From Siniperca chuatsi (lineage: Eukaryota), in contig NC_058053.1 of assembly GCF_020085105.1 (NCBI RefSeq), positions 24,541,196 to 24,605,195 of the forward strand: 64,000 bases of DNA. The letters are read 5' to 3'. The notes beneath the pieces are model-generated. The model did no database searches and had not been told where the DNA came from. It was given only the letters and a program-made list of their open reading frames with translations. Made by a program: the position numbers and the translations under genes. Positions 28,301-64,000 of the stretch are shown one piece after another; within the stretch, counting starts at the first letter, position 1; every line of letters begins with the position of its first letter.

Positions 28301-31300
28301 ACCCCATTAATCAGCCATGTCCTTCTAAATTTTCTATTTCCGTTGATGCCCACTTACAAGAAGAAAATCTAGTAAAATAGTTTACTCACAATATCAACAT
28401 AGGAATGAAAGCCTATATTAATTGTACCTGTTGAAACGGTCTTGTAGTAAAAGCTGCAGGGACAAATCTGTATATGGAGTGATCATTAAATGAGAGGAAC
28501 AGAGTGGTGCTGTTGAAAAAGCATGAGTAGTCTGACGCTTGAAATCCTATACAAAATGTTATACTATGTCTGATTGAGATGTAAGGAGAAATTCTTCATA
28601 CAGTCAATACAGAATCAACTAACCTCTTCTCATTAACTTCATATAAATATACTGAACACTGCAAAACTTATAAACATGAGTTGTTCTAACTAAGTCTTTT
28701 AACTTAAAATGATTTTGAATGAATATACTCCTGAGTGTTCACTCTACTCATTAAGTGTCTAAAGAAGCTTGATCAGCTTACTAGCAGACTTCCCAGTGTG
28801 TATTGTTTGAGACTCTCCAGAGACCCCTCTTTTTGTTTGAAGAAAACACTCATGATGGAAACCTGCTGTGTCTTTACATTTTTTTTACTCTATACGAGTT
28901 CGCTTTTTCAAAACTCAGTCACAGTCAGCACAGCACTCGATATGGCGTTTGACCGTTCTCTTCCAGTCACAGAGTGGTTTACAGCCCATCCCAGGATGGT
29001 GTCACTTTTCCTTCCACCTGACCTTACTCTCCATTCCACAAACCCGCAGAGCAATTATTTTCCTCATGGAAGTGGAAAGTTTATCACCACCAGCCACATG
29101 ATCAGATGAAACAATGGCCACATTGAATGCTGGATATCTGGCCATATCTGCAGAAGATTGTCAGGGAATGGATCAAACGTAAAAATTTCCCAGGTGTATT
29201 GTAAGAGAGGACATAAGGTGTCATGTGGATGAGAACTTGTGGCCAAATGCAGAAGACAGGGTTGACTAGCACTGTTGTATTTTTGCATCTGTAACTTTTC
29301 TATTCAAGTATGTTTAGTGAATTTGTATAGTTTAGTATTGCATAACTGGAATTACTTTAGTTTCATTTTGTGCACTTGGAATTAATTGCTGCAAAAAAAA
29401 CAAACATTGAAGCATATTCCAGCATTTGATTCATTTCTGTGACATGTTCTGTTAGGAAGCACAATTCAGGCAATAAAGATGTGACCTTATTTGTAATGCT
29501 ACCTGTTGTTAGTGATTTCTATGATCAATATGAGTGTTACTATTGGCAGACAAATGCTGTCAGTGTTCGGGTAAACTAGTTGCTTTGGTTGCACTAATGC
29601 ATTCTGGATGTGAGATCTGTTGCGCTGAGCTGCATGTCGGTATAGAGAAATGTGACTTAGCAATTGAAAAAAATGAATACATGTTAAGCAGGCGCGTCAT
29701 GCCCATTCAAGCTGTGGGGGCATGTGCCCCACCAGATTTTTGATATCTGAATATATTATTTTATTTTACTATTATTGTTTTTATAATATGTAGTTATGAT
29801 CATTTTAAATTATGAGTCAAACGTATTCTTCTAATTTTATGTCATACATCATACCTCAAAAATCCCCCCGTCTAGTTAGGCCCTATATCAGTGTGTGTAG
29901 GTGTGGTTACAGGTTATATGTACTTAGGCTAGTGGTGATGGTGGATCTTTCAAGGAGGCTGAGCAGTTTGGAAAATAAGTTACTGCTGCTCAGTCTGAGC
30001 TTTTATTGGCAATGGAGCATCTGTACTCATGCTGCTTCCTATGCATTGTGTTTGAAAATACAGCTATTACCATGTTGGCAGGTTCCTTGTATCTGTGGCT
30101 TTATTGTCTCTGTTCTTTAAATCTCTAAATAAAAATCAACAATGTTAACCCTAATATAAAGTGGGAGATTACTGAGCTAAAATGGATTTAGTTAAAGGTT
30201 GGGTATGCGGTTCTGGAGAAATCCAATACCGTGACAAATACCATGATAAAGAGCGAACAACGACACAGCAAGTAATGTAATTAACGTTGTAACGCAGCTA
30301 GGTTGTGTGTTAGCAAACTGTCCCTACAGTTGCTGCTGCGAAGCTAACAGCCAGAGAGGACGAGGCGGTTTACCAGAGCCAGCACAGCAGCTCCAGACAG
30401 CGATGCTCACAACTCTCATGCTACTATAGCTAACATCACAACAGCAGTATATCTTGGTAAACTAGAAAGTAAGCTGAATGTCCACAAGCAAGTCATTTAT
30501 CATTACCTGACGCAAATCATGGCTGGAATGGCAGGAATAGTGTTGTGTGGCCCGGTCTGAGCCACTGTGTTCATTTCCCATTTACAGAGCCAGGGCTCTG
30601 TACAAACACTGGAGTTTTCTATCAGCACACACACTGAATGGACTGCTAGTGGACCGTGAGGAGATATTAGCTGAATCTAATAAAAAGAAGTGTATTGGAT
30701 TAGAATTGCACACCCCATGTTTAAGTTTAAAAAATAATCCCCTCAAAAGTCTTTGAATATATAGGTTAAATTGCAGAAAATTGCGTAATTATTTTCTTTT
30801 TTTTCTGGGGATTGACCCCTTATAATTATATGAAACCCCTGATGTTAAGTCATGCTGGTTTCTTTTCAGAATTGTAGAAACAATGCTAAGCACAATGAAG
30901 GTAAGTATCAAATTCAGTCACTACCCAAGTACACTTACAATGTAACAGGGTTAGTAGGAGCAGCCTCACATGCTGACTTTGTATTATCTCTGGTACAAAG
31001 TGGCTCTAACAGGAGCAGCGGCAGCTGTAAGTTCTTCTTGTCAAACTAAGAACTGACTCTTTAAACAGAAAATGTAAATTGAAAGCAAATCTGTCCGCAA
31101 CATGTGTCAGATTGACTGAACAGTTGTTGATTCAACTTAATATCTTGAGTTTATTGAACTTATTTTCTCAGTTTCAGTGAACTAACCTCAGTTGGTTTTA
31201 TATTTTCAAAACTCATAAGACGACTTTGAGCTTACAAATTTAAGAAAGCAGGGGAACTTTTTTCAGTTGAACAAGCTTAGGGTAAAAGTTAACCTTTAAC

Positions 31301-43721: not shown

Positions 43722-45720
43722 GTATATAATAATAATATAATAATAATAAAACTTTATTTATAGAGCACTTATCAAAACAAAGTACAAAGTGCTTCACAAC
43801 AAGAGAAATAAAATACCACAGTGAATGATGAAATATAAAGAAATAAAATACATAAAATACACAAAAGCAATAAAATAAACAGCCAGTTCAGGTCAAATCA
43901 GGATATGCTTGGCAATAAAAATGTTTTTTGAGAAGAGACTTAAACAAAGACACTGACTCAGACAACCTAATTTCTTTGGGCAAGTTGTTCCAGAGCCTCG
44001 GGGCCATGATAGCAAAAGCTCTGTCCCCCTTAGTTTTCATCCAGGACTCAGGAACAGATAGGAGACCCCTGCCCGAAGATCTCAAACTACGTGAAGGTTC
44101 ATAAGGGATTAAAAGGTCTAAAATATAGTCTGGAGCCAGGCCATGAAGGGCCTTAAAAGTAATCAACAAGCTCTTAAAATGAATCCTCAAACCAACAGGG
44201 AGCCAATGTAAAGAGGCTAAAACAGGAGTTATGTGGTCGTACTTCTTGGTCCAGGTTAACAGCCGAGCAGCTGGGTTTTGTACAGTCTGCAGTCGTGTCA
44301 AAGTTTTTTGATTAAGACAAGTGAACAGGCTGTTACAATAATCAAGGCGTGAGGAGATAAAAGCATGTACATGCAGTTTCTGCATCACTAAGATTTAAAA
44401 TAGATGGGATTTTTTCAATGTTTCTGAGGTGATAAAAACACGATTGGACAAGCTTAGTGATGTTGCGCAAAACATAAATTGTTATCAAACAGGACACCAA
44501 GATTTCTTGCAACAGGCTTGATATGTTGTGACAGGTTACCAGTAGATGGCAGTGTTTGTTTAGTGATGTGTTGGGGCCCAATAACAAGGATTTCAGTTTT
44601 ATTTGAGTTGAGCTGAAGAAAATTTATCGACATCCAATTTTTTATGTCAGACAGGCAGTCCTGCAGAGAACTCAGCGTACTAAGGTCAGTGGGCTTGACA
44701 GGGAGGTACAACTGTGTGTCATACGCATAACAATGAAAAGAAATACCATGTCTGCGGATTACATCACCCAAAGGAAGCATGTAAAAGGAGAACAGTATTG
44801 GTCCCAGAATTGAACCTTGAGGCACACCGTACTTGATATGGGAAAAGGATCACATGAAGTTATTAATGCTGACACAGAATTTCCTATTGGACAGATAAGA
44901 TGAGAACCAGTCTAGTGCAGTGCCAGATATGCCCACCCAGTGCCTCAGTCTATCTAAAAGAATGCCATGCTCAATTGTGTCAAAGGCAGCACTTAAGTCC
45001 AATAGCACAAGAATTGAACACATGCCTGCATCTGCATTCATTAAAAGGTCATTGGTGACTTTGAGAAGGGCTGTCTCAGTGCTGTGGTGTTGACGAAAGC
45101 CAGATTGGAACTTTTCAAAGGTATTATTGTTTTCCACAGCAGCAAGAAGCTGCTTAGATACAAGTTTTTCGAGAATCTTCCAAATAAAAGGCAATTTGGA
45201 GATTGGGCGATAGTTATCCAAGAGGGTGGGATCAAGCCCAGGTTTTTTTAGGACTGGCTGGACACAAGCTGTTTTAAAGTAATCAGGGACGCAGCCAGTA
45301 GACAGTGAGCTGTTCAAAAAATAATTTGTAAAAGGGGCGCAATACAATCTATAACTTCCAATAAAAACCTAGTTGGGATTTTGTCCAGAGGACTGGCGGA
45401 TACTCTCATAAGCTACATGATGTCTGTGTGTTCAGGCAGCATAACAGCAGAAAAATTGCTCAAAGAATCCCCGAGCGGGTGATCCACATCTAAAAAGACA
45501 TGGTTGGGGGTGACATCAGATCTTATTAACTCCACCTTTCCAGCAAAGTGCAAAACAAACTTTTCACAGTCAGCATCACAATCAGCAGGGGCACAAGGAG
45601 AGGCAGGGTTAACTCACTGATCCACAGTCTTAAATAGGAATCTGGGGTTGTGCTGATGGGCAGAAGTAAGTGCAGAGAAATTACATATTCTTGCATCCTT
45701 CACCATCCTATTATAAAGGC
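43722..45720 (-). mobile_element. L2/CR1-type LINE, ~2 kb 5'-truncated copy (RT domain to 3'UTR) with frameshifts; master-like copy of the family seen at 3161, 22700, 57984 and 63360
   Basis: Minus-strand ORFs 44850-45347 (..NYRPISKLPF..FQSGFRQHHSTETALLKV..LLDLSAAFDTIEH..), 44454-44825 ([20 protein letters not shown]...[10 protein letters not shown]) and 43888-44388 (..NPAARLLTWTKKYDHITPVLASLHWLPV..). The 3'UTR ends in a (TAA)n tail at ~43722-43748. Confidence 0.88.
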
Positions 45721-53318: not shown

Positions 53319-53400
53319 TGCAAAACACAACAGCAAAACAGAAAACCCAATGGCAAAACAGAAAACACAATAGCAAATTACAAAACACAACAGCATTGGT
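53319..53400. repeat. Minisatellite-like tandem repeat (~21-nt units: gcaaaacagaaaacacaata)
   Basis: Direct reading: aacacaacagcaaaacagaaaacccaatggcaaaacagaaaacacaatagcaaattacaaaacacaacagc. Confidence 0.6.
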
Positions 53401-53961
53401 GAGACTGAAACCGGAAAGGGTCGGTACCTATTCCACAATGCTTCCTCGTCCCTGGTTGGACACACTGTCTCTCTCAATCTGGGAAGCATTTGTGTCTGGC
53501 AGCCTACTCTGTCTGCAGTGTTTTACTTAAGGTTCAAGCTGAAGAAAATGGAGCCAAACACCGATTTAAAAAAAAAAAAAGGTTACTTTGATCAAGGCCA
53601 TACATACTCAGTCATACTTGATATGCTGTCAACTTTGCACAACATTACGAGGAGTTTGCGCACTCTGAAAACCTGGTTACAGTTTTCCTCGATTGCTAAG
53701 ACACGCTTAATGAATCTGGAACCCACTTGATCTTTATCATCACCTTCTTAGCACAGCAAAAGTCTTCTCTTGCAAATGTGTTAACATATTTTCATTGGTT
53801 TCACACATCAACCCTTATCCATTTATAAAAGATGCCACATCTGCGTTGCTATTTGCAAGCAGCCAAAGGCACATAAAGAGTCTAAGAGGTCATGGCAGAG
53901 GGGCCTGAGGAAGAGGAGTTTGCATGCGTAGTGAAGGAGCCGCAACAAGAGGAGAAAATAG

Positions 53962-54098
53962 AAAGTTTCAAATGAAATTCGGGCAACAATTATTGACAAT
54001 GTCATCAATCATGGCTTGTCCTTGAGAGGCTGGACAAAGGGTCCAGCCCATTCTGAGTCGGAGTCAGCTATTGTCAGACTTTTTCTGAATGAGAATAT
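53962..54098 (+). CDS. Transposase-like gene, exon 1 (HTH region; reading frame as used by exons 2-3); the upstream ATG at 53892 is in a different frame
   Basis: Encodes KVSNEIRATIIDNVINHGLSLRGWTKGPAHSESESAIVRLFLNEN. Followed by a consensus donor TAT|GTAAGT at 54099. The ATG at 53892 (MAEGPEEEEFACVVKEPQQEEKIESFK*) is out of frame by 1 nt, so either a frameshift or a different start. Confidence 0.45.
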
Positions 54099-54260
54099 GT
54101 AAGTCACAATGTTACTGTGTACCACTGTGTATTTCAGCTTTACTGTATTGCTCTGTTGGCAGAACAAACTGTGTCTACAGTAATGCAGTTGTTTCATCAA
54201 TCCCATTTATGTGACTGTCATAATGCCAATTTTGACATGTTTTTGGCATTTACTTTATAG

Positions 54261-54515
54261 AATCCACAGACTACCACATACTGGTGCCAGAGAAAAGATC
54301 TTTAGTGCCGAACAGGTGGCTGCTATTATAGATATGGTCGTTGCAAACAATGCAATCAGACTGTGTGAAATCCAGGCAGCAGTAATTGCAGATCAGAGAG
54401 CATTTAGGAATATCAACAGTGTAAGTTTGGCGTCAATTGATCGAGTCCTTACACGAAACCATGCTGGAATGAAGCAGCTGTACAGAGTTACATTCCAAGA
54501 ATCCAGTATGTGCAG
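54261..54515 (+). CDS. Transposase-like gene, exon 2 (second HTH / linker)
   Basis: Acceptor ttactttatag| at 54260. Encodes (I)IHRLPHTGAREKIFSAEQVAAIIDMVVANNAIRLCEIQAAVIADQRAFRNINSVSLASIDRVLTRNHAGMKQLYRVTFQESSMC. Donor CAG|GTAAGG at 54516. Joining exon 1 keeps the reading frame. Confidence 0.5.
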
Positions 54516-54605
54516 GTAAGGATTTATTATTGTAATGTCTTGTCATACCATACAGTTGCATGCAACTGGAATAATTTGCTTAATGAATTTGCTTTTTTCT
54601 TAAAG

Positions 54606-54906
54606 AATAATGGAGCTTGAAACTGAAGGGGCACATCATATTCATATATGTGCCGGCTTCAAACTCTCTAAAGTGAGGAGACACGAGAGAAACATCACTG
54701 GGCAGAGGAACGCTGTTACAGTGCCAGGTCAGAAGGGCGCCAGTATAACCATGTGTGCTGTCATCTCCAATGATGGTCTCCTTTGCCACATACCAACTAT
54801 CGGCCCATACAATACAGAACGCCTCATCACATTTCTTGATGCACTGAATGAAAGACTGGTTCCACCCAAAAAGAGAAGGTTGTTGAGGCCTGGCACAGGC
54901 ATATAG
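54606..54906 (+). CDS. Transposase-like gene, exon 3 (start of a Tc1/IS630-type DDE fold, with the catalytic DE replaced: HICAGF)
   Basis: Acceptor ttttttcttaaag| at 54605. Encodes (R)IMELETEGAHHIHICAGFKLSKVRRHERNITGQRNAVTVPGQKGASITMCAVISNDGLLCHIPTIGPYNTERLITFLDALNERLVPPKKRRLLRPGTGI*. The pattern (..(D)E.GF.L...R..GR...G.RA...VPG.RG.NIT...AIS..G.....I.G..N...F..FL..L) is typical of DDE_3 transposases. The frame is preserved across the intron. Confidence 0.5.
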
Positions 54907-57439
54907 CAAAAATTAAGGATGAACCGGTTCATATTATAGCTGTATTTTGTTGGTACTGCCGTAGATTTGTCAGGTGCATGTATTACTCCATCCATGGGTC
55001 CAAACTACATATGGCATGTAGCTGGATATGATAAACTCAAAAACATTTGGCGTCACTCTATCAAGCTGTTTAGATTCAACTTCATTGTCATTACACATGT
55101 ACAAGTACAAGGCAACTAAATGCAGTTTAGGTCTAACCAGAAGTGCAATAAGCAAGTGCAGGATATAAAGTGTGTGCATAAATGCAGGATAGAGCAGTAT
55201 TATGAAAATATTTTACAAGTGGTACTATGATATTATATACAGATGGCATTACTATAAACAGAAGTATACTGATGGATATGTACAATAAGGAATTGGACTG
55301 GGCAGAACAGTACGGCAATGAATATAAAGTAGTGCAATTTATGGAAATAGTTAACTGTGCAGTAGATGAGTTATTGCAGTATTCAGTACAGAGTACTGGA
55401 GTGCAAATGATGCAGTACATGTATAAATAAATAGTCCGGTAGTGCAAATGAACATGTGGTACATGTAGCAAAACAATATAGCAGCAATTAAGTTAAGGTA
55501 TATGAGGGGACAGTGGAAGCGGGGGGTGGTAGCAGCAGAGTTCAGTAGGAAGACAGCTCTGGGGAAAAAAGCTGTTTCTCAGTCTGTTGGTCCCTGTCCA
55601 GAAGCACCTGAGGCGCCTGCCGGAAGGCAGGGGAGAAAACAGTCTCTGGGTGGGGTGAGAGGAGTCTGGAGAGGAGATGGATTTTCAAGACGAATTATGT
55701 TCGGCTTGTTTGTGAACCTACAAACAAAAATGCGTCCGATTACATAAATCGTGTGTAGAATCTTGATGTAGTCCCTTAACGGACTGATTACGGGACAGAA
55801 AATGGGATAATGGCAGCTATACAGTGTACTCTTCACCATTATCATAACGACTATTATGCAGGTCTGTCAAGCCACAATTAGGCTCATCAGAGAGCAATCA
55901 ACTCATTGAGTCGTGTTGGTCCCTTTTCAGAAAAGGGAGGTAGGCTAAGTAATCCCTCTTGTTACTTGTTCTTAAAACATTTTTATATTTGAAGTAACTA
56001 GTGTAACATGGCAGGTGTTACATTAAACGTATTTTCTCTATGTGGTGACCTTTTCTCCATGTGGTGATCCAGCCATTCAGGAATATCTAGAGCATGCAAT
56101 GGTGCAAAATGGATTCCAATGGCCAGAGCATTGGGAGGCAGAATCAGAACTGTACTTTTAACTCAAGGAAATAGCTGGACTATAAATAAAAAATAGCTTC
56201 TACTGAGATGCAGGACACTAATGTCAGCAAAGTACACCTGTATTACTGGGATTCTGTTTAAGCACGATACAGGCTCAGATTGCTAGACTATAAATGTGGG
56301 TTTGTCTTTGAAGTGCAACTTAAACCTTGAAGGACACAACAGCCAATCAGCATAAATAAGACCTTAGTGTCAATAAAAGGTGCAATATTCCTAAATCTAA
56401 GAACAAGGCATTCCTATATTGTTGCTCTGATAGCCTAGGGAAAAATCTGTTTTTTTTTTTGTATTAGAGCAAACACGTTTACAGCAAAGGTGAGGCTCTT
56501 AAGCCATTTTTTTTTCATTGTAGTAGTTTACATACTGATTGTACCTATTCTACATCTATTCTGCTACATTGTTTGCAAATAACACAGATATGGTAATTAA
56601 AACTTGGGACACTAGCACTATTTGCTGTCTATGGGGAGAGAGAACATGGTAAAGAGTAGTTAACATTTGCTTAAATGTAAACAGAAACACGTTCTTTTGG
56701 CATAAGGTTTAAGGACACAAGTTAAAAGAAAAAACAAGCAAACACCCAACCCGCTCCATTTAGTGATTGAAATTACTACATGGTAAATCAACCAAATGAA
56801 ATAATGCATTACATGCACCCAAATCCTAGAGAATTATGGATTCCAAAATCCATGTTTGTTTTGAAGAGACAGTATGAGTATGTATTTGCCATTACGAATG
56901 GTGAATTGTTAATGAATTCAATGCATGGCACTGGTTTTATCCCTGCTGATGGTATTGATGGTAACCCTGTAGCAAAAATCAGCACATCTTCCAGGGACAC
57001 TGTAGTCTGTTTTTGTGCAACATAAAGTTAGTCACATTTGTAGTGCTTTAGTAATCGTTGTGCATTAACTTAAAAACACGTAATTATACATTTGTCATAC
57101 TCGATAGATTTATGTTAAAATCCCAGCATTTTGCCTTCCTCCTGCCTCCTGTTGCTTCCTGCTGGACTTAGTTCTGGTTTGAAGAGGGCCTCCATGTCTG
57201 CAGAAATTAGCTTGTTGACCGAGTAGCATAAGACAGGGGCTAATTATACACCGAAATCTGTGACCCATCAGATTCTGTGACCCAAAAGGAAGTTAACGTA
57301 AGTCCAGTAGACGATTTGAGGGGGAATGCAATCCCTGTTAGCAAAATGACCAAAATCCGCCTCTCTTAAAAATTAACCAATCGCCTAAGCCCTCAGGGCT
57401 TTTTGCCAGAAAGGCTTTCTAACATGTGGTTAATGTTGT

Positions 57440-57520
57440 GTAACGGTCGCAGTTTGGTTAGGTTTAGGCACCAAAACTACTTTAGGTTTAGGAAAAGAGC
57501 TCATGGTTTGGGTTTAGACT
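57440..57520. repeat. Family-B repeat fragment (ggttaggtttaggcacc ... ttaggtttaggaaaag ... ggtttgggtttagac)
   Basis: Direct reading of tandem TTAGG-like units. Confidence 0.4.
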
Positions 57521-57831
57521 CAGACTTGCAAGTCAGTCTTTGAATCTATTAGGAAGAATGGTCAGGTAACACATAGTTTTAATTTTATTTTCAAAGGAGA
57601 CATTTAGTACATGAAAAGGCAAACATTCAAATGATTGAATACCATTCAATACCATTCAATGCAAAGGGCTTTATTGGCATGAAAGAACAATGTTGAAAAA
57701 GCATCAAAATATAATTTGTCCAAATATTTGGACAGCACACAACAACAGTAATATGAACATTAACACAACATTAAGATCGATAATTATATATATATACAGT
57801 ATATCCTATGCAAGTATATCCTATGCATGTA

Positions 57832-57833
<2 letters not shown>

Positions 57834-57867
<34 letters not shown>
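57834..57867. repeat. (TG)n microsatellite
   Basis: Direct reading; artefactual ORF 57690-57905. Confidence 0.97.
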
Positions 57868-57868
<1 letters not shown>

Positions 57869-57983
57869 ATGTGCTGATGAAAGGTTTACATGTAGGGAAG
57901 GATAAAGGGGTACATTAGCCATGTTGAAATGAATCCCCAGTTAACAGTAATGTATTACGTGAATGTATTATTTGATGAAAACT

Positions 57984-58128
57984 AAGGGGGACAGAGCTTT
58001 TGCTATCAGGGCCCCGAGGCTCTGGAACAACTTGCCCGAAGAAATTAGGTTGTCTGAGTCAGTGTCTTCATTTATGTCTCTTCTCAAAACACATTTTTAT
58101 TGGAAAGCATATCCTGATTTTACCTGAC
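57984..58128 (+). mobile_element. L2/CR1-type LINE, ~145-bp fragment of the ORF2 C-terminus (same family as 43722-45720)
   Basis: ggggacagagcttttgctatcagggccccgaggctctggaacaacttgcccgaagaaattaggttgtctgagtcagtgtc... encodes GDRAFAIRAPRLWNNLPEEIRLSESVSSFMSLLK, the counterpart of GDRAFAIMAPRLWNNLPKEIRLSESVSLFKSLLKKHFY in the 43888-44388 ORF. Confidence 0.8.
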
Positions 58129-59739
58129 GCGGGACGCGAACATGATGGATTATTAAATTCAGATACTTGTGATTATGGAGGCAGTGAATAGATATTTCAA
58201 AATATTACCTTTCAATAACACTCCCATTTCTTGGGAGAATGTACCATCTGAGGTACTCCTCCACAATATCATGCTTCTCCGCCAGGTCCTTCACACGTTT
58301 GAAACATCCAGCAGTGTGGAACATGGTGCTGTTCTGCAAAATAGGATCTTGCAGAGACTCAGAGATTTTGCATTCTGAACCTGAAAAATTAAACTTAATA
58401 AGACCAAACAATGACTACTGGTTCTGATAAATGTTTCAAACTTATCTTCTCTCCAATAAACATTTTTAAAGCAATACTGAACTTTGGTAGAACTTTTGAC
58501 TTTTTAGCTATTTAGCCATGATAAATATGTTTCTTCTGTGAGAAGGTTATGGAGAATATTTTTCTCTCTCCATTCACTCACTCCCAATGTTAGCTAAAAC
58601 TCTTACAACACTTTTAGCACAACACAAAGGGAATTTTGCTAACATATAAAAAACATGATTCGCTAGCAATGGAAGTGAATCGCGAGAGAGAGGAACCATT
58701 CCAGTGGTTGCCAGTTTGTTACACCTGCATATTTCGTGGTGGGAGTGACACTCAGACTTATTGTACTCCTATCAAGTGATGAATCTTTTGTGATATGAAT
58801 TCATTAAGCAACATATACTTTGGCTATCGATTGAGGTTATTTTGTGCAGTAGTGTTTCATGTAATGTTATCTATGGTCCATCTTAGGATATGGCTAGCTA
58901 TCTTTAGGTGACCCTTTTTCCCCCATCATTTAAATGTAAATATTTACATTTTAATCCAATCAAAGAGTACAGTATATTATAGGGATGCTATTAATACCCA
59001 CAGTGCTCCACATTAGACAGACAGCTACAGTAAAAGTTGATGTTAGCTAGCGCATAGTGTTGACCTAACATTAGTCAGTGTTTTCCTGCTGAAAACAAAT
59101 CTCATAGATAGATTATAAAAAAACAGCTGAGCGCCACACAACAACAATGGCTACAGGGAGAAAGGACGACTGTATGACCATGTCATTATTTTCAGATTTT
59201 TATATTAACGTGAGTATCGTAGCTGTTGAGCATAATGCAGCAGGCTACATGGCTAGCTAGCCACAAGTACCTCAGCGAAGTGCGTCATAAAAGGGCTAAC
59301 GTTAGACTGCTAAATGAGATGACACCCTCAATAACAGTCACGTTTTGGGTCTAAACAATATAATGAGCAGATTTACAGTAGTTCTGAACTTTAATTTACC
59401 TTCGACATGCCACACTGGTAATATATTGGGATCCCACGTCCACTCCGCTCTTAAAGAAGAGCGACCGTCTTTTCATAAGCGGACCAGTCCGCCACAATCA
59501 AGTTACCCTGCACAAACTTGTAAGGGCCCCGGGCCATCGGTTATGTCAGATCCTGGCCCTATTTTTATAATTCTATTTTTTTTAGGAAAAGTGATTTTAT
59601 TTTACTTTTATTTCGCACCTTTCTAAAGGCTCTGTGGATGTATTAAAAAAAAACATTTGTCCACATAAAAATTTTATCAATATAACCTTATAACACGGGA
59701 GGCTACATTTTGATTCCCATTTCCAACCGACAGTCAACG

Positions 59740-59935
59740 TTGTTTTTTAAAAACCATGGTCGCCATTGTTCCCTAATCATAACCACATGATTATTATTGT
59801 AAACATGATAACAATGGTCCCCTACTGTTAAAAAAAGTAGGGATTTTGACCCAAACCACAATTTTTCACTATATTTAACCAAGTCATTTTTGTGCCTAAT
59901 CAAACCTTAACCATGGCGTGGTTATATCATAAAAC
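59740..59935. repeat. Family-B repeat fragment (ccctaatcataacc ... cctaatcaaaccttaaccatgg)
   Basis: Shares the catggt...ccctaa / gtaaacatgataacaatggt blocks with 1378-1500 and 33290-33500, in inverted orientation. Confidence 0.4.
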
Positions 59936-61603
59936 TAATTTACTTTTCAGCAGTGATTTGTAATGGTTTTATAAGGTTGACAAATTGTATTAGAAACAGT
60001 GCTTTTGCTAGCAGTGATGGAGGGTGGATTTAGGTGAAAAAAATACTGCTTAAAATGATTGACTGAGAAAAGAATTTGATGGGAGACTGAGTTACTGCGA
60101 CACTTGACCTGCGTCCAGGTAAAAAAGGGGAAGAGTCGGCATACAAAGGAGAGAGGTAGACACTTGCCAAAATATTTAAATCTGTGGTGGAAGAACTCAA
60201 GTCTATTGGGAAATTTTATGACGGGATTGTCTGTGGCTTCCCTGATGACATAGTATGAACATAAAGATGAGATTATGCTTGTAATGGGGAAAAATGTAAT
60301 GTACTTTGTTTGGCTTAATGTAGTTGAATGTAGAAGTTTGTGCTGTATTATGTCACTTTATGCTCTCCACAGACAGACATTCAGCACCATGGACAGTTCC
60401 AGCTGGGGCTTCGAACCAATTTGGAAACTCTCAAGTTCACATTTATTTGTTTTCAAGTCACCAATTTTGTCGTGTGTGATTTGTGTTTATTTGTAGATGT
60501 GCAGAAGTCAGCAATCTTTGCCCCTAGTGTACGTTGTGCTTTATGATGAGTTGTAATGATAATATTGTATTTGTAGGAATAGTGAATGTAGGCTATTCAT
60601 ATTTTTCATATACAGTATATGAGGGGTGTGTAAGTTATGAATTTTATACATGCATTGATATATTTTGATGTGAGCTTTAGTGTTTTATATGTAATCTGTT
60701 GGACAGTTGTCATGTAATTGTATCATATGAGAGATGTTTAATTTGGATTTGACATAAATCTGTTATGTAAATGTCATCCTGAGGTTTAATCAAATATGTT
60801 GTTTGAAAATGCCTCAAATAAAAAAGTGCCTTTTTAAAAGGCTTCATCATAGTTTTTCCCATGTTGTGCCACTTCTGATCAGTGGTCTGAATAATAATAA
60901 GTATCTACTGACAGTCCGTTCACCCCTCCATGAGCTGAATTTTGCTTGCTCATACACATATACACTTATTCCATTTTTTGTTATGATTCAATTTTCTTAA
61001 ACCTGTGTTGTACAAGTGCCTGTATTATACTTGAGGTCTTGAGGTAACTGTTGTGTAAAACTTGAGTATCATTTAGGCTGCTCTTACAGTACACCAGTCT
61101 GTTGCTGGCTGGGAGTGGCAAACTAGGTCTGATCATTGGTGTACCGAGGCACTGTTGAAATACATGTGAACACAATAATTGTGATACTACGGTCAGTTTT
61201 GGCTGTGGGAGGTAAATTTGTCTACTTCTTCTGGTCACTTGGCTGTAACATCCATTATTTAGGAGACATGCGCCTCAGTGGAACTCTATTTTGCTGCTGA
61301 AGTAGTTCAACTGAAAAGGGGTGAATTATGGCATTTAGGAGCCACTGTGGCCTGTACTGTACATTGTAATCTAGTTGTCTGACTGTGTGAAGGTGTGAGG
61401 AACAGTGTGGGAATCATTCAGTTGGTTTAATCAAGCAATCACACTATATTTTTTTTGTTTTTTCTTTTGTCAAGTGTCATCATCATTAATGTCTTATCAA
61501 AAATGAAGGCTTTTATTTATGGATAAGTTGATGTAATTTGATATTATCACTGGCTTTTTCCACTAAACATACTTGCCCAGGATGAGACCTAGGTTGTGTT
61601 AAG

Positions 61604-61700
61604 CCCCATTTGGACAGGATTAACATTATACAGGGAGGTGGGGAATGAAATGTAATTTAACTCATCGTTGTGGGTGGCATTTTAAACATCACCTTGGTAT
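61604..61700 (+). repeat. Short dispersed element, copy 2 (gccccatttggacaggattaacat ... gtaatttaactcatcgtt ... ggcattttaaac)
   Basis: See 10951-11045. Confidence 0.35.
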
Positions 61701-62684
61701 GTGTAAATACAAGAAGAGCTGGAACACAGTGAAATAATCTATGTTAATATCCGTAAATGTCCTAATTTCTGGTTGTACTTGAATAACATATTCCATATAT
61801 TTCCAGTAGTTCAACACTTCTCTCTGATCACTTTTGCACATAAATATGATAACAAAATACAAACATAAATAATGTGACTGCAGCAAATTATCCAAAGGTC
61901 TAAGTTAGAAACCCTGTGATTTCCACTCAGTCTTTGGCCTTCAGTTACACCCTTCTTCACCTTGTGAGGTTCCATTCAGTTTGACTTATTTTATTCTGTG
62001 AGTTCAGATCATTGAAACAGTGTTAGATCCTGCTGTTTCCCCTTGAGGTTTCAGGGGTTAGAGAGGCAGTGGAGAGTCCCTCTGATCCAGGAAGGCGGCT
62101 CACCATGGGGATCTGACAGACTGACCTGCCTGGCAGCTATGATAGATACACTGGGACTGGTCTGACCTTTCTGGCTGACATCCACAAGCTTGCTGTTGGC
62201 CCCGGCCATCATCTCTGGGTTGAAGTGCAGGTTTGGGAATAGTGGGGCTGCTCCAGTATATTCTGCACCATTTCTGCTGGACTCCTGAATCACCTCTTTG
62301 TGTGTCAGAAAACGATATTTGCTGTGAGGATTTCAAAGTGACTGAGTATCTATGCGCTCAACGGCCACAGAGAAGCAATATGTCCTTTCCACTTCTGTGC
62401 ATCTGAGGGTTAAATGATCAATAACCAGGAAAAGAATCAAAATATACTCTTGAAAAAGATGGTAAGACTAGACCAGACCTCAAGTAGAGCCAGTGGGGAA
62501 CATAGAGAACCAGAAACCTTTGAACCATGACTTTCTTGCCATAAATGTCACTTTGGTTTATGACTAAATACCTGTAAAGCTTCTAACAAAACTAAACTAA
62601 GATGGTGAACATGGAAAACATTATACCTTAATCAGCATGTCAGCATTGTCATTTGAGCATGTTAGCTCAACGCAGTGTCCCCTG

Positions 62685-62747
62685 CACGAGGGTGCGCGCT
62701 CTAAACATTTTTAGAGCGTGCACCCTCGTGACGTATCATGACGTATC
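62685..62747. other. Near-perfect 21-bp inverted repeat with a 4-nt spacer (cacgagggtgcgcgctctaaa catt tttagagcgtgcaccctcgtg), followed by the direct repeat gacgtatc-at-gacgtatc
   Basis: Direct reading. One mismatch (C/T) across the 21 arm positions. GC-rich and CpG-rich against an AT-rich background. Confidence 0.7.
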
Positions 62748-63359
62748 TTGCCTCGACTGTGAAGGCTCCACAGGTCGTGGAACTCTGAAATTTTGTAACT
62801 AGGCTTTTCATTTCAAGATGGAAGTGTTTGAAATAGTAGTTACTGGATGTAACTCCAGTTCTATGAGTACGTGCGTAGCCCTCTAACGGGCTTCACTATT
62901 GGTTTTGCACACTTTTTTCAAACACTGTACTGTTCAATAGTCACTAGCGTTGCTTTAGTCTTTTTAGCCATAAACAGATCAATGCATCCTCAGCATTGAG
63001 GAGCTGTAGGGCAGTGCACATAGCCATGTTGGATAATAAAGTTCTTCCGGTAACACTCTTTAACTTCTTGCTTATTCACAGAATATTTTGTTTGTATGTT
63101 CCCTGGCATTTCTGAGAAGACTGCAAAGACCCACGCGTGGAGCATGAACACTGCCGTGCATGCTCATAGCTCGTGCCATCAGCGGAGGCCACAGTTTCTC
63201 GCTTGAGTGTAAACAAAGCTTTAGTCTTGTTAAGTAAACCACAAATCAACAATGAGCAACTCCACCATCTAAACATCTTAACATTTTAGATTCTGACCCG
63301 CATCAACAGTGTTACAAAACATTGCCAAATGTGGATCCTTCCTGAACTGTAATGATGAA

Positions 63360-63720
63360 AAAAAAACATATTCATGCCTTCATTTCAAGCAGACTAGACT
63401 ATTGTAATGCATTATTCATTCACAGGCTTTCTGAAAAACTCTTGACAGACTTCAGTTGAATCAAAACTCTGCTGCTAGATTGCTTACTAAAACAAAAAAA
63501 AGGGAACATGTCATGCCAGTTTTGACCAGGCTCCACTGGCTTCCAGTATCTTTAAGGATTGAGAAGCTATTTTACTCAAAATACAAAGCACTAAAGCTCA
63601 GTTATTATTTCCCATTCTTATTTATGCCCCATCATGCACTCTCAGATCATCTCTGCCAATTTACTGGACATATCTACTGCCCTAAGAGGAAAATTGGAAT
63701 GTAGGTTCTTTATATATATA
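63360..63720 (+). mobile_element. L2/CR1-type LINE 3' fragment, diverged subfamily
   Basis: ORF 63456-63704 encodes NQNSAARLLTKTKKREHVMPVLTRLHWLPVSLRIEKLFYSKYKALK, homologous to ..QNPAARLLTWTKKYDHITPVLASLHWLPVGLRIHFKSLLITFKAL.. of the 43888-44388 ORF. Confidence 0.65.
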
Positions 63721-64000
63721 TACAATCTTGAATACAACGTGTATTTCCCTATTCTTGGATGTTTCCTATTTAATTAACTTCTTAGATGAAATTTTAAGTG
63801 GTTTGAAGTTTATTATTATATTCTGTGTTGTATTCACTTATTTCTTATTTGTATGTGTATGTGTATGTAGAGCACATTGAGCTGAATTCAATGCATTAAT
63901 TATGTTCTATAAATAAAATGTATTATTGTAATAATTGTGAATAAATTATAGCTCAGTTTTCATCTCTGCAAAGAGAATTTGCTCCCCCGCTTTGTCTTTG

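Follow-up and report, generated by a model that had tools for sequence, protein, structure and literature searches.

A decayed, 3'-truncated copy of a probable Hiker-like DD35E transposon with a two-intron transposase gene in a 64-kb stretch of the Siniperca chuatsi genome

Hiker (HK) is a DD35E family of IS630-Tc1-mariner (ITm) transposons, as the work describing it is cited in later papers (Shi et al., 2023, Mol Phylogenet Evol 188:107906; cited in PMC13469147 and PMC12400950), and DD35E is also the spacing of IS630 (PMC11544213). Traveler, a DD35E Tc1/mariner element of vertebrates, is ~1.5 kb long with one uninterrupted gene of 338 aa, is nearest to DD34E/Tc1 and has repeats ending in CAGTC/CAGCC (PMC7093834). 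TLEWI, found in bivalves, is DD36E, low-copy and without terminal repeats, and has been proposed to be domesticated (bioRxiv 10.1101/656579).

Here we have analysed a stretch of 64,000 nucleotides of Siniperca chuatsi DNA (the window; NC_058053.1, positions 24,541,196 to 24,605,195), in which a sequence-only reading had picked out a three-exon transposase-like gene and offered three accounts of it: an intron-bearing transposase family in decay, the 5' part of a domesticated host gene, or a gene with further exons downstream. We are highly confident that 53678-54895 is what remains of an autonomous cut-and-paste transposon of the ITm group, a DNA element that is IS630-like and DD35E, in a copy that is inactive and truncated at the 3' end; its family is most likely the published Hiker/DD35E. 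Among the three accounts, the intron-bearing transposase family stands, with this copy of it in decay, but the domesticated gene and the further downstream exons fall away. The parts of the remnant are as follows.

53678..53679, + strand: TA dinucleotide of the left flank, where the left copy of a TA target-site duplication would be expected
53680..53705, + strand: left terminal inverted repeat, 26 nt, CAGTTTTCCTCGATTGCTAAGACACG, matching the carp repeats (contig L001, 5636-5663 and 7844-7871)
53706..53861, + strand: remnant of the 5' untranslated region, with a private 182-nt deletion after 53806 (five-way DNA alignment)
53862..54098, + strand: exon 1 remnant, first helix-turn-helix domain (alignment with four relatives)
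54099..54260, + strand: intron 1, phase 2, GTAAGT...TTTATAG, 162 nt, at a family-conserved position
54261..54515, + strand: exon 2 remnant, second helix-turn-helix domain and linker, 255 nt against 283 nt ancestrally
54516..54603, + strand: intron 2, phase 0, GTAAGG..., its ancestral acceptor AG (54602-54603) mutated to AA
54604..54895, + strand: exon 3 remnant, 292 nt out of 648 nt, covering the first part of the DDE catalytic domain

The identity of the window product was obtained from a large protein search. Its spliced form matched 92 fish proteins, the best being carp LOC109078969 (71% identity, colinear over residues 41-283), and aligned to residues 41-283 of the carp protein P0001 at 71% identity (BLASTP E 1e-112; database E 2.6e-91), a likeness well past anything that chance would give; at the nucleotide level the copy is 82-87% identical to carp. 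When the window product was searched by itself against Pfam and PDB sequences, the outcome was a sub-threshold DDE_3 match and noise only. The profile check that had been proposed for the spliced product was thus borne out in part: the start of DDE_3 was matched, but at 21.7 bits against a cut-off of 28.6, and NCBIfam NF033545 reached ~13 bits (13.3; cut-off 100). On NF033545, the model for the IS630 family transposase (cut-off 100), intact relatives reach 117-128 bits over nearly the whole model length, and on DDE_3 (cut-off 28.6) they reach 77-83 bits; they do not match the Tc1-specific HTH_Tnp_Tc3_2 domain. The triad of the relatives reads D(88-90)D(35)E (D201, D292 and E328 in P0001), and the spacing from its second D to its E is 35 in every one of the five examined relatives of full or near-full length. 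The AlphaFold model of the intact relative P0003 (pLDDT 73) has two predicted three-helix bundles (helices 40-83 and 101-150) followed by an RNase-H-like, beta-rich core, and its best solved-structure match is full-length Mos1 (E 2e-11), then SETMAR and the Sleeping Beauty catalytic domain; intact relatives are accordingly modelled with a bipartite helix-turn-helix N-terminus and an RNase-H-like catalytic fold. The earlier assignment to an ITm transposase, in which two helix-turn-helix domains at the N-terminus precede the beginning of a DDE domain, agrees with this homology to fish DDE_3 proteins. Its suggestion that the family as such is in decay does not, as intact multi-copy members are present in many fishes. 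Indeed, a full-length relative matched 585 protein clusters, with up to 114 member sequences in a cluster, and fishes and a bullfrog are among the best 120 of the 585.

The carp, Logan and hake copies align to the window from exactly the TA at 53678-53679 onwards. The left repeat that follows occurs once in the window (0 chance matches expected), differs from the carp left repeat at 3 of 26 positions, and has its CAGTTTTT...TTGCT.A.ACAC ends in common with the cichlid and skate copies. The segment of 5' untranslated region gone from the window measures 182-183 nt in three of four relatives and 145 nt in Myxocyprinus (contig L006). At the other end, homology breaks off at 54895, and does so whether carp, hake or Myxocyprinus is compared; this base corresponds to residue 283 of 398 and lies 9 residues short of the second catalytic D. 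No right terminal repeat for this copy was found in the window with up to 7 errors in 27 nt allowed; the search yielded the repeat of an older fragment (29651-29677) and two non-credible matches. The suggested look for flanking repeats and a TA duplication therefore succeeded on the left (53678-53705) but found no right repeat in the window, and only the left TA can be read, the right end being missing. In the carp, cichlid and skate copies, both ends are seen whole, with a repeat and a TA on either side. No C-terminal homology was found on either strand of 54896-64000 (9.1 kb downstream), a self-comparison and tandem-repeat scan of 52-58 kb did not identify the sequence past the breakpoint, and an Rfam scan of the whole window found nothing. 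It is possible in principle that an insertion of more than 9 kb separates the copy from its missing 3' part, which would then be found past the end of the window. The only C-terminal fragment in the window, at 28924-29266, was considered as the missing half and rejected: it lies 25 kb upstream of the copy on the same strand and is much more diverged (~72% nucleotide and 43-59% amino-acid identity to carp), with its breakpoint at about residue 288 as against 283.

The two segments proposed as introns do begin and end as described (GTAAGT at 54099-54104 with AG at 54259-54260; GTAAGG at 54516-54521 with AG at 54604-54605), and spliceosomal introns at both places are real for the gene family. A comparison of intron positions among copies, one of the checks put forward, found identical codon positions and phases (2 and 0) in carp, cichlid, hake and skate, with differing lengths (172/85, 98/132, 97/93 and 271/118 nt in intact copies). 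The intron 1 junction reads ..GAGAAYAG/GT...TTATAG/ARTCCACA in carp and hake and falls at the same codon position and phase in cichlid and skate; exon 2 is exactly 283 nt in all four, and exon 3 runs uninterrupted for 648-663 nt (or the equivalent) straight through the breakpoint of the window copy. Furthermore, three contigs (L007, L008 and L009) hold a single uninterrupted reading frame over both junctions with both introns absent, and in L007 both junctions can be read directly, the introns having been excised exactly there. By this comparison of gene structures, the family gene is one that bears spliceosomal introns, conserved in position and removed in the contigs. The contigs, which carry flanking DNA, a terminal repeat and intron-less exons, could be read-through spliced transcripts; alternatively, they could be cDNA-converted intron-less genomic copies, themselves unusual.

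Lesions of the window copy were called from a five-way DNA alignment with four relatives, and each is private to the window. The family start codon (ATGGATCAAAGAG) falls within a 12-nt deletion after 53861, besides which there are frameshifting deletions of 4, 2, 7, 28, 2 and 7 nt. Exon 1 has lost 4 nt after 53962, 2 nt after 54023 and 7 nt after 54064, reads TGA for CGA in the ancestral frame (53906-53908), and ends in a G>T change that turns AG/GT into AT/GT; the 41 nt between its 2-nt and 7-nt deletions are out of frame and give RGWTKGPAHSESES, not REAGQRVQPILSRSTVAS. The 28-nt deletion lies in exon 2, after 54498. At the acceptor of intron 2, all four relatives have CTTAG/AGAATAATGG and the window has CTTAAAGAATAATGG, a G>A change at 54603 having converted AG to AA. 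The AG at 54604-54605, previously taken as the acceptor, is cryptic: it comprises the first two bases of ancestral exon 3, 2 nt downstream of the ancestral site. In exon 3, 2 nt are deleted after 54637 and 7 nt after 54651, the latter removing GGATGAA, which encodes the Asp-Glu of FVDEAGF and with it the first catalytic D. The sequence-only reading had rightly seen HICAGF where relatives have FVDEAGF, among peptide strings that are all present, and had rightly noted a frame that lacks the first catalytic D/E and stops short of the second D and E. Of the D-D-E triad, the first D is deleted, and the second D and the E are absent.

Private substitutions amount to 56 in 883 comparable sites, with G>A or C>T making up 31 of them. 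Over codon positions 1/2/3, changes on the window branch number 25/19/18, whereas the hake branch has 25/14/66; because the private substitutions are so even over codon positions, the decay of the copy is neutral, and we infer that it has been drifting neutrally since insertion. Its triad no longer intact, the copy is a relic and no functional member of the ITm group.

Given such damage, the length of the open frame calls for comment. Excising 54099-54260 (162 nt) and 54516-54605 (90 nt) does leave three segments in one frame, which had been offered as evidence of splicing; both segments are multiples of three, however, so that one genomic frame results whether they are spliced or not. Nor is the frame open for ~257 codons, as there are three stops in 53893-53964 and the open part runs only from 53965 to 54903 (230 codons), up to a stop at 54904-54906 that had been placed at 54893. 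With ~6% private substitution and six internal indels, the rough chance of a 230-codon frame nonetheless staying open is a few per cent. It is open because the deletions cancel (2 and 7 nt in exon 1, 28 nt with the 2-nt acceptor shift, and 2 and 7 nt in exon 3), and its openness is partly a selection effect, the frame having been chosen for being open and the cryptic acceptor picked to keep it so. The ATG at 53892, correctly described as 1 nt out of frame, was considered as the true start, as suggested by Labeo and carp models (P0020 and P0004) that begin MAEGPEEEE; it was ruled out by carp, hake, cichlid and skate, whose proteins begin MDQRG../MSGRG../MDAGR.., read in a different frame of the same GA-rich stretch, and the corresponding start in the window is the one lost in the 12-nt deletion.

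This open frame is also what might recommend the locus as the 5' part of a host gene domesticated from a transposase, catalytically dead and making a helix-turn-helix-only DNA-binding protein, an account we consider very unlikely. With the splice choice first made, 230 codons lie open over both helix-turn-helix domains and the indels cancel pairwise; moreover, there are precedents in the Tc1/mariner group and in pogo, with TLEWI proposed as an intron-bearing co-opted case (bioRxiv 10.1101/656579). Such a gene would, however, have lost its start codon, with its first in-frame Met inside the second helix-turn-helix domain, and would have helices 2-3 of the first domain replaced by out-of-frame residues (the exon 1 stretch bounded by the 2-nt and 7-nt deletions). 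Read in the ancestral frame, it would also be interrupted by a nonsense codon and by frameshifts, and its ancestral acceptor is destroyed. Its private substitutions show no codon-position bias (25/19/18), a terminal inverted repeat is still attached, and the lesions were seen in none of the related proteins retrieved and inspected.

Conservation of exon 3 as a single block in carp, cichlid, hake and skate weighs heavily against an intact multi-exon gene whose remaining exons, encoding the second D, the E and the C-terminus, would be joined downstream through an AAG/GTTGTT donor. A GT does follow AAG at 54879, and homology does stop abruptly at 54895, but the supposed donor sits within codons R-G-L-L of continuous exon-3 coding sequence in every intact relative, C-terminal homology is lacking on both strands from 54896 to 64000, and the sole C-terminal fragment of the window is the much more diverged one 25 kb upstream; we regard this account as exceedingly improbable. 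We would likewise give almost no credence to a non-autonomous derivative still mobilisable in trans by intact family members: the left repeat is well preserved (3/26 positions off the carp left repeat) and intact relatives are common in cyprinid-type genomes, but cut-and-paste needs two ends, the window holds no right repeat for this copy, and the repeat at 29651-29677 belongs to the older fragment, upstream of the copy's own left end.

We therefore return to a truncated copy of an autonomous element, which, when intact, is ~2.2-2.4 kb long, has TA-flanked repeats of ~26-28 nt beginning CAGTTTTT and carries one three-exon gene, its product having a long Arg/Gly-rich N-terminus. The host spliceosome takes out one phase-2 and one phase-0 intron, as shown by comparative gene structure and by the contigs without them; the resulting transposase, of ~398 aa (398-399), has an RNase-H-like D(90)D(35)E catalytic domain behind two DNA-binding helix-turn-helix domains. 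If it acts as Mos1 and Sleeping Beauty do, the transposase would attach to the terminal repeats, cut the element out and insert it again at a TA. The window copy is incapable of these steps, owing to its missing start codon, premature stop, six frameshifting deletions, destroyed acceptor and missing first Asp, and has neither the other two triad residues (second Asp and Glu) nor a right terminal repeat.

A sizeable part of teleost genomes consists of decayed DNA-transposon fragments, and the window copy is ordinary genomic debris of a kind already known, the broken front two-thirds of a common fish DNA transposon. No sign of function was seen at 53678-54895. Its biological weight is small and its value is mainly for annotation, where it ought to be masked as a Tc1/mariner-group (IS630-like, DD35E) repeat, with no gene call. 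In this connection, the RepeatMasker label TcMar-ISRm11 is in use in fish genome papers, and several public models, some of them "uncharacterized protein LOC..." entries and others carrying the names of unrelated genes, represent copies of the transposon. The mildly interesting point belongs to the family rather than the locus, namely a two-intron gene structure strictly conserved over distant fishes. It is doubtful, but conceivable, that such a structure, held strictly from skate to cyprinids, cichlids and hake in an abundant, TIR-bearing IS630-like DD35E family, has so far gone undescribed, for instance if the transposase was treated as a single ORF. If so, the conserved introns could mean that splicing regulates transposition, as with the P element.

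Compared with known systems, the fish family resembles Mos1 mariner and Sleeping Beauty (Tc1) in having two helix-turn-helix domains before an RNase-H-like DDE/D domain and TA-flanked repeats beginning CAGT, but identity is 14-17%, the spacing is DD35E as against DD34D or DD34E, and introns are present. Bacterial IS630 (NCBIfam NF033545) shares the DD35E spacing and TA insertion, and the fish relatives score above its curated cut-off; the fish elements are, however, eukaryotic, ~2.2-2.4 kb long, and have two spliceosomal introns and a long Arg/Gly-rich N-terminus. Traveler is similar in its DD35E triad, fish hosts, TA duplication and short terminal repeats, and was rejected as the identity of the family on account of the latter's 2.2-2.4 kb length, 398-399 aa product, two introns, CAGTTTTT ends, and IS630 match without the Tc1 helix-turn-helix model. 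TLEWI provides a parallel for ITm-group transposase genes with GT-AG spliceosomal introns (bioRxiv 10.1101/656579), but the fish family differs from it in being DD35E and high-copy, with TA-flanked repeats. Introns are thus known, if uncommon, in the ITm group, since TLEWI carries them. Hiker is the nearest likeness, drawn by description only: the relatives of the window copy are DD35E members of the ITm group with no match to HTH_Tnp_Tc3_2, and they were met here in ray-finned fishes, one skate and a frog. Hiker reportedly has this same distribution.

The locus at 53678-54895 (+) is a dead and unremarkable remnant, the 5' fragment of a fish DNA transposon of the IS630-Tc1-mariner (ITm) group that is already known and abundant. 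Homology to the 2,236-bp carp element starts exactly at TA plus the left terminal repeat (53678-53705) and ends at 54895, the same end being found against hake and Myxocyprinus. The remaining 9.1 kb downstream of 54895 holds neither a right repeat nor C-terminal coding sequence. Measured on the 398-residue protein, the copy breaks off at residue 283, nine residues short of the second catalytic Asp.

The spliced window product matched 92 proteins in a large protein collection, a skate relative among them and the named ones nearly all from fish. Its best match is carp LOC109078969 (398 aa), with 71% identity and a colinear alignment over residues 41-283; the three segments thus come from a single family and stand in the correct order. 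The product itself scored 21.7 bits with Pfam DDE_3, below the cut-off of 28.6, and had no meaningful match among PDB sequences. A search with a full-length hake relative returned 585 clusters, many with tens to more than 100 member sequences per single genome; the best 120 of the 585 come from ray-finned fishes and bullfrog. Relatives are usually annotated as "uncharacterized protein" or "Tc1-like transposase DDE domain-containing protein". Some copies are deposited under unrelated names (keratin type I cytoskeletal 9-like, serine hydroxymethyltransferase, NLR family CARD domain-containing protein 3, SH2 domain protein 1A), through erroneous annotation transfer or in chimeric gene models.

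This copy belongs to a genuine transposon family. Its intact members score 77-83 bits with Pfam DDE_3, above the cut-off, also pass the NCBIfam curated IS630-family-transposase model (117-128 bits against a cut-off of 100, with ~280 of 299 model positions covered), and carry a D(88-90)D(35)E catalytic triad. An AlphaFold model built on 27 relatives (mean pLDDT 73) predicts two three-helix bundles (residues 40-83 and 101-150), then a linker helix, then an RNase-H-like domain; the two HTH motifs proposed from sequence alone coincide in position with these bundles. Among solved structures, full-length Mos1 mariner transposase matches the model best (E 2e-11), ahead of the SETMAR and Sleeping Beauty catalytic domains. 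The carp element ends in TA plus CAGTTTTTCTC.TTTGCT.A.ACAC inverted repeats; in the cichlid and skate copies the repeats are likewise flanked by TA and share the core CAGTTTTT...GCT.A.A. The carp locus (L001 4758-4787 and 4998-5056) bears extra terminal-repeat copies 600-900 bp upstream of the element, which may be solo ends or else MITE-like derivatives from this family. At the cichlid locus, part of the exon-1 region is matched in inverted orientation at L002 5217-5318, ~700 bp before the start of the intact copy, which suggests a second, opposite-facing fragment.

Both introns are real at the family level. Exon structures were reconstructed exactly by mapping each annotated protein to the genomic locus it comes from.

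Intron lengths in four species
Carp: intron 1, 172 nt; intron 2, 85 nt
Cichlid: intron 1, 98 nt; intron 2, 132 nt
Hake: intron 1, 97 nt; intron 2, 93 nt
Skate: intron 1, 271 nt; intron 2, 118 nt

In all four, intron 1 is in phase 2, splitting an Arg codon after ..EN/..TN, intron 2 is in phase 0 between YVQ and R, and exon 2 is exactly 283 nt; the intron lengths are mostly not multiples of 3. Furthermore, three short-read assembly contigs (L007 from SRR33708465, L008 from SRR14563183, L009 from SRR14563181) run from flanking host DNA through TA and the left terminal repeat into one uninterrupted frame over both junctions, and thus lack both introns. Read directly in L007, the junctions show precise excision (GAGAACAG|AATCCACA and GTGCAG|AGAATAATGG). 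Such contigs come either from spliced read-through RNA or from genomic copies that lost their introns by cDNA conversion; whichever their origin, exact GT..AG excision shows that the spliceosome processes both introns. The strictness with which the family conserves its two introns is the only point that may merit a specialist's glance, if not already described.

A five-way alignment of the window copy with carp, hake, Myxocyprinus and Logan contig L005, the closest available copy (93% identical), shows that all lesions are private to the window.

Lesions of the window copy (+ strand) in the five-way alignment
After 53806: 182-nt deletion, 5' UTR
After 53861: 12-nt deletion, takes out the family start codon
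53906: CGA>TGA, ancestral frame
After 53962: 4-nt deletion, exon 1
After 54023: 2-nt deletion, exon 1
After 54064: 7-nt deletion, exon 1
After 54498: 28-nt deletion, exon 2
54603: G>A, intron-2 acceptor AG to AA
After 54637: 2-nt deletion, exon 3
After 54651: 7-nt deletion, exon 3, loses GGATGAA (Asp-Glu of FVDEAGF)

The splice-like signals of the sequence-only reading are present (GTAAGT at 54099 with AG at 54259-54260; GTAAGG at 54516 with AG at 54604-54605), and its join ..54098/54261-54515/54606-54906 does give one frame. The second AG, however, is cryptic, 2 nt downstream of the ancestral acceptor that is now AA. The frame, put at ~257 codons, is open only from 53965 (230 codons, stop at 54904-54906), with three stops within the 24 codons 53893-53964. 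Because the removed segments (162 and 90 nt) are multiples of three, the three pieces share a genomic frame spliced or unspliced, and the 1-in-9 argument from frame preservation has no bearing on splicing. The 230 codons stay open because 2 + 7 nt, 28 nt plus the cryptic AG 2 nt downstream, and 2 + 7 nt are each divisible by three in total, and because short out-of-frame stretches are stop-free by luck. "HICAGF", read at the first catalytic position, is the product of the 7-nt deletion after 54651. The sequence features and homology that were claimed hold, but not the open-frame length or the meaning given to frame preservation. The ORF MAEGPEEEEFACVVKEPQQEEKIESFK at 53892-53975 (+) is the +1 frame of GA-rich DNA that also encodes the Arg/Gly-rich true N-terminus (..RGHGRGARGRGV..); two public gene models, P0020 and P0004 (Labeo rohita and carp), begin with an alternative-frame peptide matching this ORF and are probably mis-predictions made on frameshifted copies.

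Three explanations had been offered: a decaying copy of an intron-bearing transposase family, a domesticated host gene, or a gene with further exons downstream. The last finds no C-terminal coding sequence in the 9.1 kb available. Against domestication stand the substitutions assigned to branches by codon position, with hake as third taxon.

Substitutions by codon position (1, 2, 3)
Window branch: 25, 19, 18
Hake branch: 25, 14, 66
Carp branch: 8, 7, 12

Constraint is absent from the window branch; on the hake branch third positions are in excess, as expected of selected coding sequence. Among 883 sites where at least three relatives agree, the window copy departs from them at 56 (6.3%), 31 of the 56 being G>A or C>T, and none of the related proteins retrieved and inspected carries its lesions. 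The window copy is in neutral decay. The earlier interpretation is partly right: an intron-bearing ITm transposase with a decaying copy holds, and neither domestication nor further exons find support.

The window as a whole is AT-rich eukaryotic sequence (36-42% GC), without long ORFs except retrotransposon remnants.

Other mobile elements and repeats in the window
28924-29266 (+): older relic, the second from this transposon group, C-terminal part only (~residues 288-398)
29651-29677: decayed right terminal repeat (TGTGACTTAGCAATTGAAAAAAATGAA) of that relic
43888-45347 (-): three consecutive ORFs, frameshifted non-LTR retrotransposon
53322-53395 (+): 20-nt tandem repeat, 3.7 copies, AAAACACAATAGCAAAACAG
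53568-53580 (+): 13-nt A-run

The older relic, 25 kb upstream of the 5' fragment and far more diverged, is spread over three frames with 43-72% amino acid identity to various relatives. Its breakpoint falls within ~5-7 codons of that at 54895, a near-coincidence we take to be chance. Two of the three retrotransposon ORFs match Pfam RVT_1 (E 1.7e-15 and 8e-11), making this another dead mobile element. The tandem repeat and A-run, shortly upstream of the transposon's left end, are outside the element and possibly the tail of another repeat.

As to its name, the family is likely Hiker/DD35E. The Hiker study reportedly found hosts mainly in Actinopterygii, plus Chondrichthyes and Anura, a range matching the hosts found for the window's relatives. 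Hiker is a published family (Shi et al., 2023, Mol Phylogenet Evol 188:107906), referred to in citing passages of PMC13469147 and PMC12400950 as a lineage separate from Tc1, beside Gambol. The RepeatMasker class TcMar-ISRm11 (IS630-like), reported from teleosts, may be the label given to copies like this one. Traveler, the other vertebrate DD35E family, was rejected, being 1.5 kb, 338 aa, intron-less and Tc1-like with CAGTC ends (PMC7093834). The DD35E spacing of the relatives is the classical IS630 one (PMC11544213), and in bearing introns, uncommon yet known in the ITm group, the fish family resembles TLEWI of bivalves.
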